Shown one piece after another: positions 1,557-41,025 of a stretch of DNA of 64,000 nt (its first letter is position 1; every line of letters begins with the position of its first letter). Below the pieces are notes generated by a model that saw only the letters and a list, made by a program, of their open reading frames with translations, searched no databases and was not told where the DNA came from. Origin of the DNA: Escherichia coli (GTDB lineage Bacteria > Pseudomonadota > Gammaproteobacteria > Enterobacterales > Enterobacteriaceae); assembly GCF_003334355.1 (NCBI RefSeq), contig NZ_QOWP01000001.1. One strand, written 5' to 3'. Made by a program: the position numbers and the translations under genes.

Positions 1557-2675
1557 TTATTCTCCCCGTGAGTCAGCGTTATCTTTCTTTTGCTGACGAC
1601 CCAGTTCACGCACCGCCATCACGCTGACACCGGCAACGAGCCCAACCACACCGCCGAGCAAACCAATAGCGCCTGCAGAGACGTTGCCGCCCTCTTTAGC
1701 GTTAACATCCGGTTTCTGTGAACGCGGAGTCTGATTTTCGACGTTGGCAAGCTGATGGATGCCTTTATGGAAGCCGATACCTTCTTCGTTACAGCCATAG
1801 CACGGGTGACCAATCGCCACCGGCCACACACCGCCAACATCGCAGAATTGCAGCGTTGAGCAGTTGCCATAAGTTTCTGGCCCTTTACAGCCGAGGTGGT
1901 ACAGGCACCAGCCTTCGCGGTGGCCTTCATCACCGAACTCTTTGGCAAAACGACCAGCATCGAAGTGCGGGCGACGTTCGCAGTGTTCGTGAATCAGACG
2001 GCCATAGGCGAAGGTCGGACGGTTTTTGTCATCCAGTTTCGGCGGTTTGCCGTAAGTGATGATGTGCGCAACGGTCGCGAGGAAGTTGTGCGGGTTCGGC
2101 GGGCAGCCCGGAATATTGATAACGGTTTTGCCTGGCAGAACTTCTTGCAGGCTGACTGCGCCAGTTGGGTTAACTCCAGCTGCGGCAACACCGCCCCACG
2201 CAGAGCAGGAACCGATAGCGATAATCGCTGCTGCGCCTTCTGCCGCTTTGCGGATGTGATCCACAATCGGCTCACCAGCAACCATGCAATAAATACCGTT
2301 ATCTTTTAATGGGATGGAACCATCCACAACCAACACATACTGCCCTTTGTACTTCTCAAGTGCGTTATGTTTGTTCTCTTCGACCTGATGACCGAAGGCG
2401 GCGGAAAGCACTTCGTGATACTCCAGAGAGATAGTCTCCAGCACGAGGTTTTCTACCGTTGGATGCGTTGCACGAAGCAGAGATTCCGTACAACCGGTGC
2501 ACTCCTGCGCGCCAATCCAGATAACTGGCGGACGCTGCGGGTTAGTAACCGATTCGGCCATCTCTGCAGCGGCTTTGCTACTTAACCCCATGGTGGCGGC
2601 TAATGCTGCACAAAGCTTCATGAAATCACGACGGTTAATGCCGTGAGAATGGATGAGGGTGTTATCTCCAGTCAT
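1557..2675 (-). CDS. hybO: Hydrogenase-2 small subunit HybO
   Basis: 372-aa ORF; N-terminus [27 protein letters not shown] (Tat signal); length and sequence match remembered HybO; sits 2 bp upstream of hybA. Confidence 0.95.
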
Positions 2676-2863
2676 TTATAGTTATTCCGTTGCGAAGACC
2701 TGGCATATATTTTGCCTCAATCGCAAAATCAATAATGCGATCGATGCGCCATTTACCACACATTTATTATGGTTATCGATATCATGATACTGCGGCGGGG
2801 CGCTAAAACGAAGGGAAGAAGCATTAGTGTAATTAATTAAAGCAAGATAATACGTATGTTTGA

Positions 2864-38853: not shown

Positions 38854-39627
38854 ATGTCAGTACCTCTCATTCTGACCATACTGGCGGGGGCAGCCACGTT
38901 TATTGGCGCGTTTCTCGGCGTTCTCGGGCAAAAACCCTCGAACCGCTTACTGGCGTTTTCGCTAGGTTTTGCGGCGGGGATCATGTTGCTCATCTCATTA
39001 ATGGAAATGCTTCCTGCCGCACTAGCAGCTGAAGGAATGTCGCCTGTGTTGGGTTATGGAATGTTTATCTTCGGTCTGCTTGGCTATTTTGGCCTGGACC
39101 GCATGTTGCCACATGCTCATCCGCAGGATTTAATGCAAAAATCGGTGCAGCCGTTGCCAAAATCGATCAAGCGCACAGCCATTCTGCTCACTCTCGGCAT
39201 CAGTCTGCATAACTTCCCGGAAGGGATTGCCACCTTTGTCACGGCGAGCAGCAACCTGGAGCTGGGATTTGGCATCGCACTGGCCGTCGCGTTGCACAAT
39301 ATTCCTGAAGGTCTGGCGGTTGCAGGCCCGGTTTATGCAGCAACGGGTTCTAAACGCACGGCAATTCTGTGGGCGGGGATTTCTGGATTGGCAGAAATTC
39401 TTGGTGGTGTGCTGGCGTGGTTAATCCTCGGTAGCATGATTTCCCCGGTGGTCATGGCGGCAATCATGGCGGCGGTTGCAGGAATTATGGTGGCGCTCTC
39501 GGTTGATGAATTAATGCCGCTCGCCAAAGAGATTGACCCTAATAATAACCCCAGCTATGGCGTACTATGTGGAATGTCAGTGATGGGATTCAGTTTAGTG
39601 CTGCTACAAACGGCGGGAATTGGTTAA
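38854..39627 (+). CDS. zupT: Zinc transporter ZupT (ZIP family)
   Basis: ORF trimmed to 257 aa ([23 protein letters not shown]...); AAGGAG Shine-Dalgarno 7 nt upstream; ZIP-like HNxPEG motifs. Confidence 0.93.
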
Positions 39628-39684
39628 AAACAACATCAGAAGTTGTCCAGCACATGGACAACTTCTGCCAGCTTCACGAAAGCC

Positions 39685-39855
39685 TTATTCTACCTTTTCG
39701 GCTGTCTCTTCTCTCGTACTGTTTAAGTATTTGTTCCGCGCTTCAAGCAGTGCGTCTCTGTCCTGGCGAAACGCCCGACAATAACGTTTCAAATGCAGGA
39801 AATAACCCACCACAACCAGAGCAATCAATACAATCCAGTACCAGGCGATAAACAT
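39685..39855 (-). CDS. Candidate small single-pass membrane protein (56 aa), unassigned
   Basis: ATG at 39855 preceded by AAGGG about 6 nt upstream; MFIAWYWIVLIALVVVGYFLHLKRYCRAFRQDRDALLEARNKYLNSTREETAEKVE: one hydrophobic helix then a charged tail. No homology assessed. Confidence 0.35.
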   Translation of the reverse strand: MFIAWYWIVLIALVVVGYFLHLKRYCRAFRQDRDALLEARNKYLNSTREETAEKVE

Positions 39856-40056
39856 CCTTTTACCCTTAATATTTAACAATACTAAACATTTAGCGCATAA
39901 ATTTCACATATCCTTTTTCGGATATATTCATATGGTCGCATAATAACGGAACAATTATATGATTTTGATCATAATGAAAAAGAATGCCTGATATTAATGA
40001 AATTTTCTCATAGAAAGAGAAGCGGAATTAACATCTTGCATAGCAGGGAAAAATAA

Positions 40057-40084
40057 AAACCGAAGCCTGCTACAACTTCGGTTT
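40057..40084. terminator. Bidirectional intrinsic terminator downstream of ribB
   Basis: A-run, stem AAACCGAAG / CTTCGGTTT with a 10-nt loop, then T-run; lies about 35 bp past the ribB stop. Confidence 0.6.
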
Positions 40085-40116
40085 CTTGATTAAGGCAGTA
40101 AATTAAGCAGCGGTTT

Positions 40117-40770
40117 TCAGCTGGCTTTACGCTCATGTGCCTGACGGTATGCCACCAAGTCTTCAATAGTCACGAGCGCCATGTTGTGTTTATTGGCAAA
40201 CTCAATGCACTCTGGTGCACGCGCCATCGTGCCATCGTCATTAGTCAGCTCACACAGCACACCAGCCGGTTTAAAGCCTGCCAGCGTCATCAAATCAATA
40301 GTCGCTTCAGTATGACCGCCACGCGTCAGTACACCACCTGCCTGCGCGCGAAGTGGGAAAACGTGGCCCGGGCGATTCAGATCAGAAGGTTTTGCGCCAT
40401 CGGCAATCGCTGCGCGAACGGTCGTAATACGATCAGCGGCAGAAACACCGGTAGTCACACCTTCAGCCGCTTCAATGGTCACGGTAAAACCGGTGCCATA
40501 GGCGCTGGTGTTATTTTCTACCATCATTGGCAGATCAAGTTGTTTACGGCGATCTTCAGTGATGCACAGGCAAACAATACCGCTACCGTGGCGAATGGTC
40601 AGCGCCATCTGCTCAACGGTCATGGTTTCTGCCGGGAAGATCATATCGCCTTCGTTTTCACGGTCTTCATCATCAAGCACCATTACACCGCGTCCTTCAC
40701 GCAGCGCAGCCAGTGCATTTTCAACACGTTCGAAAGGCGTACCAAAAGAGGAAAGTAGCGTCTGATTCAT
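40117..40770 (-). CDS. ribB: 3,4-dihydroxy-2-butanone 4-phosphate synthase RibB
   Basis: 217-aa [48 protein letters not shown]... Confidence 0.95.
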
Positions 40771-40869: not shown

Positions 40870-41025
40870 GAATCGTTACTCTCTCCCATCCGGACTCTAA
40901 CCGTCGGCCCCGGAATTACACCGGATCTGCTGTCCTTTGAGTTCGCACTCAAAGCGCTCGCGGGCTTTCAACCAAGTTGATTTACCGCCGGTGGGGAATT
41001 TCGCCCCGCCCTGAGAATAAGCGGA
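40870..41025 (-). promoter_or_regulatory. FMN riboswitch (RFN element) in the ribB 5' leader
   Basis: Minus-strand leader contains the conserved RFN blocks ...GGGGCGAAATTCCCCACCGGCGGTA...AGCCCGCGAGCG...GGACAGCAGATCCGGTGTAATTCCGGGGCCGACGGTTAGAGTCCGGATGGGAGA..., upstream of the riboflavin-pathway gene ribB. Confidence 0.85.

Follow-up and report, generated by a model that had tools for sequence, protein, structure and literature searches.

The Small-Protein Gene yqiD between zupT and ribB of Escherichia coli: Coding Selection, Transcription Unit and Two Diverged Haplotypes

Introduction

MgtS, MgrB, AcrZ, MntS and PmrR are characterised bacterial regulators that consist of a small protein with a single pass through the inner membrane. 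They belong to a size class of less than 60 amino acid residues, with one transmembrane helix and a short soluble segment, and several of them were found only by dedicated small-protein screens. Small membrane proteins of E. coli are known to modulate transporters, as exemplified by the pairs MgtS-MgtA, MntS-MntP and AcrZ-AcrB and by KdpF; the targets of MgtS and MntS are a magnesium and a manganese transporter, respectively.

The E. coli protein YqiD, with 56 residues and one predicted transmembrane helix, belongs to the same size class, and it too is known from a small-protein screen. It differs from the five regulators in that it shares no sequence similarity with them and in that its soluble part is composed of a conserved 18-residue basic helix followed by a variable acidic tail. 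No published function for YqiD was found, the searched literature giving only its detection and the variation of its expression.

The present analysis concerns the yqiD locus in a 64,000-nucleotide stretch of E. coli DNA (contig NZ_QOWP01000001.1), called the window below, whose numbering is used for all coordinates unless another locus is named. The explanation as a whole, in which yqiD is a translated and vertically inherited small-protein gene that forms its own unit, encodes a single-pass membrane product and is regulated, is very probably correct. YqiD, the product of an E. coli core gene of near-universal occurrence, with a strongly constrained helix, an 18-residue motif that is presumably cytoplasmic, and a conserved palindrome and leader upstream of the gene, is a reasonable candidate for a small-protein regulator. 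A sequence-level map of the selected residues, of the limit of the promoter unit, of both haplotypes and of the zupT-free cases could guide experiments.

Results and Discussion

Identity of the Open Reading Frame

The minus-strand frame at positions 39855-39688 translates into the 56-residue sequence MFIAWYWIVLIALVVVGYFLHLKRYCRAFRQDRDALLEARNKYLNSTREETAEKVE, with an ATG at 39855-39853 and a TAA at 39687-39685. The coding sequence of 56 codons plus stop occupies 39685-39855 (minus strand), to the base where the first-pass annotation had placed its ORF. A megablast search of 39600-40120 against 5,426 complete E. coli genomes returned the annotation "yqiD: protein YqiD" under the match, and the coding sequence of the RefSeq "protein YqiD" WP_000469266.1 in the feature table of one matched genome projected exactly onto 39685-39855 of the minus strand. 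In that table yqiD stands at locus positions 2586-2756 (minus strand), strain W3110 matched the yqiD coding sequence at 100%, and an exact-sequence look-up in UniProt returned YQID_ECOLI. The identical 56-residue YqiD sequence was printed by VanOrsdel et al. 2018 (Proteomics 18:1700064; PMC6001520), who located yqiD between zupT and ribB at MG1655 coordinates 3183381-3183551, and the EcoCyc identifier b4756 is used for the gene in a 2026 paper. The comparison with YqiD of E. coli K-12 (b4756) showed 100% sequence identity, the same position and strand, the same 171-nt coding sequence and no difference. These data show that the ORF is yqiD (b4756), an already named and experimentally detected small membrane protein gene of E. 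coli.

The product has been observed directly, YqiD being among the 36 of 80 short ORFs for which the product of a chromosomal SPA-tag fusion was seen by immunoblot in LB cultures (PMC6001520). The authors of that study described the detected subset to which YqiD belongs as being mostly at high levels. According to the account in PMC6001520, YqiD was also one of 13 that Nakahigashi et al. 2016 had already obtained as positives, still without identification, by ribosome profiling with tetracycline arrest, and none of these small proteins was represented by a peptide in a mass-spectrometry study cited there. The locus goes unmentioned in the main text of Nakahigashi et al. 2016. Tagged expression and ribosome profiling, both proposed as checks in the first-pass annotation, were thus already in the literature with positive outcome. 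Its description of the ORF as unassigned, of a kind often missed by annotation, has to be withdrawn, since yqiD was named in 2018, is annotated in RefSeq at the exact coordinates and has the UniProt entry YQID_ECOLI; as a discovery the ORF carries no weight, its translation having been shown at the same date.

Start Codon and Local Setting

The list of open reading frames extends the yqiD frame upstream to a TTG at 39879 (64 aa). This extension is unlikely, because the homologues all begin with MFIAWYW and because species differ by single-nucleotide indels in the stretch from the Shine-Dalgarno sequence to the ATG. On these comparative grounds the ATG at 39855 is the start codon. It is preceded by the sequence TTAAGGGTAAAAGGATG, in which the ribosome-binding region AAGGGTAAAAGG (39856-39867, minus strand), read directly from the DNA and at least 90% conserved in 24 loci, lies immediately 5' of the ATG. 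An AAGGG at 39863-39867 is separated from the ATG by 7 nt, a further AAGG directly abuts it, and both are kept across genera; the Shine-Dalgarno sequence reported previously is therefore present, with a spacing of 7 nt rather than the proposed value of about 6. The start region GUAAAAGGAUGU fits 11 of 12 positions of the CsrA SELEX consensus. A CsrA site was not adopted, the GGA being GAA in the Citrobacter freundii group.

The GC content is 0.29-0.30 at 39825-40049, in comparison with 0.5-0.59 in the flanking genes. The earlier picture of an AT-rich region just past the ribB terminator, with the ORF convergent with zupT, proved accurate: the terminator lies at 40055-40086, zupT ends at 39627 and yqiD at 39685, and a hairpin between the two stop codons is common to both genes.

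Conservation and Coding Selection

With the coding sequence alone as query, yqiD was found in 5425 of the 5426 complete E. coli genomes, and it is single-copy in this species. Protein searches gave homologues in Escherichia species, Citrobacter and Salmonella, and further ones in Intestinirhabdus, Enterobacter sp. kpr-6, Phytobacter and Kosakonia came from a genome scan. In all 35 loci checked, an intact frame of 56-70 codons was found tail-to-tail with zupT, and no frameshift or stop occurred in any related locus examined. The frame is also complete in Salmonella bongori N268-08 (locus L045, 1439-1614), where all 58 codons, the Shine-Dalgarno sequence, the leader and the upstream palindrome are intact; the deposited annotation of this genome gives only 37 aa, starting from an internal Met.

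Substitutions are distributed very unevenly along the gene. Among 29 sequences from four genera, the numbers of variable sites in the first, second and third positions of codons 1-40 were 18, 11 and 35 of 40, whereas codons 41-56 showed no bias (16, 17 and 18 of 18 codons). For codons 1-40, dN/dS was 0.03-0.07 against Citrobacter and Salmonella in the pairs with estimable dS, these estimates being above 0.9 and several pairs being too saturated to compute. In the tail dN/dS was mostly 0.4-1 where estimable, and proteins of between 56 and 70 aa occur in the different genera. The first 40 residues are, as judged from these substitution patterns, under strong purifying selection, and the C-terminal tail evolves freely.

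Within 4.5 kb, 44 ORFs reach 30 aa or more, so that the length of an ORF is by itself uninformative here, and yqiD is regarded as real because it is conserved and not because of its length. The conservation and the synonymous versus nonsynonymous pattern, which had been put forward as the check to be made, both favour a genuine gene for a single-pass membrane protein over a chance ORF, with the frame intact in all related loci examined and the low core dN/dS given above.

In the 17-sequence Escherichia-Citrobacter-Salmonella alignment the invariant residues are M1, I3, W5, Y6, W7, Y18, H21, K23, R24, A28, R30, D32, R33, D34, A35 and L36. After addition of the Phytobacter-type sequences the invariant set is M1, I3, W5, R24, C26, A28, R30, D32, R33, D34 and A35. 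The family is narrow, only 20 clusters having been recovered when 1.84 billion representative proteins were searched exhaustively with a profile. In the remote homologues the motif A-[FYC]-R-[QH]-[DE]-R-[DE]-A is retained, but Cys26 is displaced or absent in P0142, P0145 and P0148. One predicted metagenomic protein of 125 aa (P0146) combines the first ~70 residues of ZupT with a C-terminal half resembling that of YqiD; because zupT and yqiD are convergent, it probably arose as a chimera during assembly or gene calling.

Predicted Protein Architecture

Three segments can be distinguished in YqiD. The predicted transmembrane helix FIAWYWIVLIALVVVGYFLHL is encoded by codons 2-22 (39790-39852, minus strand), with a Kyte-Doolittle hydropathy of 2.1-2.4 and an AlphaFold2 helix in which the block pLDDT is 79-87; W5 is invariant in it, and Y6, W7 and Y18 are nearly so. 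The basic amphipathic juxtamembrane helix KRYCRAFRQDRDALLEAR (codons 23-40; 39736-39789, minus strand) follows, with the core motif given above, with invariant or near-invariant columns in both alignments and in the remote homologues, and included in the core of low dN/dS. Residues 21-40 carry a net charge of +3, have a hydrophobic moment of 0.45-0.55 and are the most conserved part of the protein. The fast-evolving charged tail (codons 41-56; 39688-39735, minus strand) is delimited by its codon-position pattern, its dN/dS and its changes in length. The strongly hydrophobic helix and charged C-terminal tail noted at first reading were recovered, with a mean hydropathy of 2.3-2.4 over 19 residues within positions 1-20 and the charged tail at codons 41-56. 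AlphaFold2, run with the 17-sequence alignment, gave one continuous helix over residues 3-55 in a model of moderate confidence (mean pLDDT 74, pTM 0.35).

Neither family libraries nor solved structures assigned a function by homology. NCBIfam gave no membership, the best match being NF038143 with 18 bits against a cut-off of 50, and the Pfam matches were weak, inconsistent and driven by the transmembrane helix, such as DUF2621 with E = 8e-4 in one of the 17 members. No hits were obtained in a PDB profile search at E <= 10 or with the PADLOC defence models. NCBI and UniRef apply the label DUF4051 to homologues from Citrobacter, Salmonella and Shigella and to the second E. coli haplotype described below. 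The proteins so labelled are either 67-80% identical to YqiD over 88-93% of the query or cluster-mates at 90% identity, and they are encoded at the same locus. In Pfam-A, no DUF4051 hit was found for the query or the 17 members, and the model was possibly absent from the library used.

Transcription Unit and Neighbouring Genes

A terminator-like hairpin at 40055-40086 (minus strand), the putative intrinsic terminator of ribB, separates ribB from the yqiD unit. On the other side, the yqiD and zupT stop codons flank a hairpin with a 13-bp stem (39637-39667); on the minus strand it is terminator-like with a T-run, and it appears to be a terminator common to the two genes. A fimbrial operon of four genes sets ribB and yqiD apart in E. 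coli Nissle 1917 and 042, and in S. enterica and S. bongori the genes assT-dsbL-dsbI lie directly upstream of yqiD. In every case the upstream conservation starts at a palindrome, whatever adjoins beyond it. Since the ribB terminator lies between them, and since other genes intervene in Nissle 1917, 042 and Salmonella, yqiD is placed outside the ribB operon. These observations support yqiD as a separate monocistronic unit, with its own promoter within the AT-rich 200 bp and a terminator hairpin shared with zupT.

Promoter activity of this segment has been reported in a preprint (bioRxiv 10.1101/2025.06.10.658842), in which the fragment 39856-40050 and its variant from the other haplotype were cloned before GFP and the fragment drove GFP expression. 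In the same work yqiD was among four genes for which GWAS, promoter model and reporter agreed that natural upstream variants altered expression.

The operon inserted in Nissle 1917 and 042 (locus L007, 7026-12000, and locus L039, 8422-13396, respectively) is of the yqi chaperone-usher type, and its DNA is 67-75% identical to the ygiL-usher genes of the window, where the fimbrial genes follow ubiK from 41718 onward. The same two strains carry assT-dsbL-dsbI between ygiC and ygiD.

Upstream Palindrome, Promoter and Leader

The palindrome at which the upstream conservation starts is a perfect one of 16 bp, TATGAT-CAAA-ATCATA (TATGATCAAAATCATA; 39958-39973), for which 0.04 chance matches are expected in the window; it is a candidate transcription-factor site. 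Escherichia, Citrobacter, Salmonella and Intestinirhabdus all retain it, and Enterobacter sp. kpr-6 has it in the form CATGATCGGGGTCATC. The homology between the two E. coli haplotypes begins exactly at this site. About 31 nt downstream of its centre, a candidate -10 hexamer CATATG (39929-39934, minus strand) lies in a conserved alignment block and is represented by TATATG, TATAGT, TATATA or TATAAA in other genera. The palindrome may be the site of either an activator or a repressor, because three candidate -10 sequences exist.

Class II sites of the CRP/FNR type, centred near -41.5, have the form TTGA-N6-TCAA for FNR and GTGA-N6-TCAC for CRP. The palindrome resembles them in its TGA-N6-TCA core and in a compatible spacing to the candidate -10. 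It differs from them at the specificity base, which is A (ATGA-N6-TCAT) in place of the T of FNR sites or the G of CRP sites; this A occupies each of the two half-sites in Escherichia, Citrobacter, Salmonella, Intestinirhabdus and Enterobacter sp. kpr-6. Literature searches that combined FNR with zupT or ribB, combined ChIP-exo with zupT, or used the palindrome sequence found no ChIP or literature support for a factor binding it. Motifs of Fur (11 of 19 positions), ArcA, PhoP, OmpR and NikR were compared by eye and dropped, such comparisons being unreliable in AT-rich DNA. A promoter-scan candidate (TTAATA-18-TATGAT) was likewise rejected, because its -35 is not part of the segment that stays conserved when haplotypes or genera are compared.

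Between the candidate -10 and the ribosome-binding region lies a conserved leader (39868-39928, minus strand), likely the 5' UTR, with the inverted repeat ATATATCC-GAAAAA-GGATATGT at 39906-39927. Column identity is about 90% or more over much of 39856-39928, and a TGTTT/TGTTA direct repeat is present. From the palindrome to the ATG, Escherichia shares an identity of 0.67-0.80 with Citrobacter or Salmonella, in comparison with 0.45-0.65 at third codon positions; since the former exceeds the latter, the promoter and leader are under constraint. The arms of the inverted repeat change together in some Citrobacter (ATACCT/AGGTAT), and the corresponding hairpin is present in both the MFE and the centroid fold, the single-sequence fold being not significantly stable (z = -1.8). 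RNAalifold gave only a weak helix that pairs the leader with the start region of the gene (-1.9 kcal/mol), with no compensatory changes and no covariation-supported consensus. Because RNAalifold lent no support and the fold is not significantly stable, no structured regulatory RNA is proposed. The palindrome and the constrained leader suggest that yqiD expression is probably regulated.

Two Haplotypes in E. coli

The window segment 39621-39980 was compared with the equivalent segments of Nissle 1917 (locus L007, 12446-12802) and 042 (locus L039). As seen in these alignments, E. coli carries two deeply diverged yqiD haplotypes. The K-12-type allele (at least 95% identity) is present in about 4,430 E. 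coli genomes, and the second allele in about 990, including Nissle 1917 and 042; the latter is 80.7% identical to the former over the first 108 nt and cannot be aligned beyond. The protein that it encodes shares 69% identity with the K-12 type and bears the RefSeq name "hypothetical protein", only the K-12 type being named YqiD. The divergence sets in abruptly with the stop codon of zupT: within that gene the first ~240 bp are 93-100% identical, as against 47-82% for the yqiD segment. Between the alleles the synonymous sites are saturated, yet the protein core is kept, with a dN/dS of 0.06.

The 042 allele (locus L039, 7670-7840) bears the DUF4051 label in UniRef and is the sole gene so labelled at the locus. 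In enteroaggregative E. coli 042, Orf3334, assigned to the "DUF4051 family", was one of only three among 23 tested genes that were upregulated in an aar mutant (PMC5570504). Orf3334 is probably the 042 allele of yqiD; if so, the gene would be linked to the Aar/H-NS/AggR network.

Proposed Mode of Action

YqiD would form one long helix, of which residues 2-22 would span the inner membrane. No charge precedes this helix, and K23, R24, R27, R30 and R33 follow it within eleven residues; because of this distribution of Arg and Lys the positive-inside rule predicts a periplasmic N-terminus and a cytoplasmic segment of residues 23-56. The selected parts would be the transmembrane helix and the amphipathic basic helix, the tail being a freely evolving charged appendage. 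As described for other small membrane proteins, YqiD may bind and modulate a larger inner-membrane protein or complex through its transmembrane and juxtamembrane helices. We consider this N-out/C-in single-pass shape, together with action by binding of a partner, to be somewhat better than an even proposition.

The neighbouring divalent-metal importer ZupT is a positional candidate for that partner, YqiD then being a dedicated accessory or regulatory subunit that would sense metal or redox state through His and Cys residues at the interface. The tail-to-tail arrangement with zupT, at a distance of about 60 bp, holds in all 35 synteny loci and in further Salmonella and enterobacterial loci, and the pairing survives inserted operons that displace ribB. 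His21 and Cys26 would lie at the membrane-cytosol interface, accompanied by Cys20 in most genera, or appear as His18, Cys21 and Cys26 in the Phytobacter type, and the E. coli small membrane proteins that modulate transporters offer precedents. However, the convergent orientation means that yqiD and zupT are not co-transcribed, adjacency among close genera can be explained by simple inheritance, and, as described above, Cys26 is not universal. In addition, in two loci of metagenomic enterobacteria (L043 and L044, 3001-3162 in both), assT and ygiC flank the gene for a 53-residue YqiD homologue (P0143, about 51% identity), and neither zupT nor ygiD is alongside, the only case found of yqiD not paired with zupT. 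The searched literature yielded no experimental link between YqiD and ZupT, and this assignment is judged unlikely. Between assT and ygiC of E. coli Nissle, no unannotated yqiD paralogue was found. A fuller version is judged very unlikely; in it YqiD would be a regulated modulator of an inner-membrane transporter, with ZupT as the positional candidate, acting through the juxtamembrane helix and its His and Cys residues, a factor resembling the CRP/FNR family would bind ATGA-N6-TCAT, and the two ancient haplotypes, with their different promoter contexts and tail sequences, would confer phylogroup-specific expression.

The small size and the very hydrophobic N-terminal helix of YqiD would also suit a type I toxin-like peptide comparable to Ibs, Ldr or TisB, and Ibs toxin genes are located about 7-10 kb away in Nissle and 042. 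Against a toxin speak the detection of YqiD by chromosomal tagging in ordinary LB cultures (PMC6001520), the single-copy and near-universal occurrence of the gene in E. coli, and the strong purifying selection on a long polar cytoplasmic segment that such toxins do not have. No Rfam antitoxin or sRNA family overlapped the ORF at E <= 1, nor was there a PADLOC match, and a toxin of this type is regarded as highly improbable.

That the frame is a chance ORF in AT-rich DNA, or incidental to a conserved RNA such as a ribB 3'-UTR fragment or sRNA, has next to no likelihood: the abundance of short ORFs, the conservation of the flanking non-coding DNA and a sub-threshold Rfam match to STnc240 at the ribB terminator would accommodate it, but it is refuted by the concentration of substitutions at third codon positions and the published immunoblot (PMC6001520), as well as being at odds with the uninterrupted frame, the low core dN/dS and the lack of any Rfam family covering the ORF.

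The STnc240 match (40048-40118, minus strand) scores 29 bits against a gathering score of 55 and covers the ribB stop codon and terminator; it may represent an RNA derived from the 3' end of ribB. Upstream of ribB, an FMN riboswitch was matched at full length at 40874-41022 (minus strand) with 121 bits, as annotated in RefSeq.
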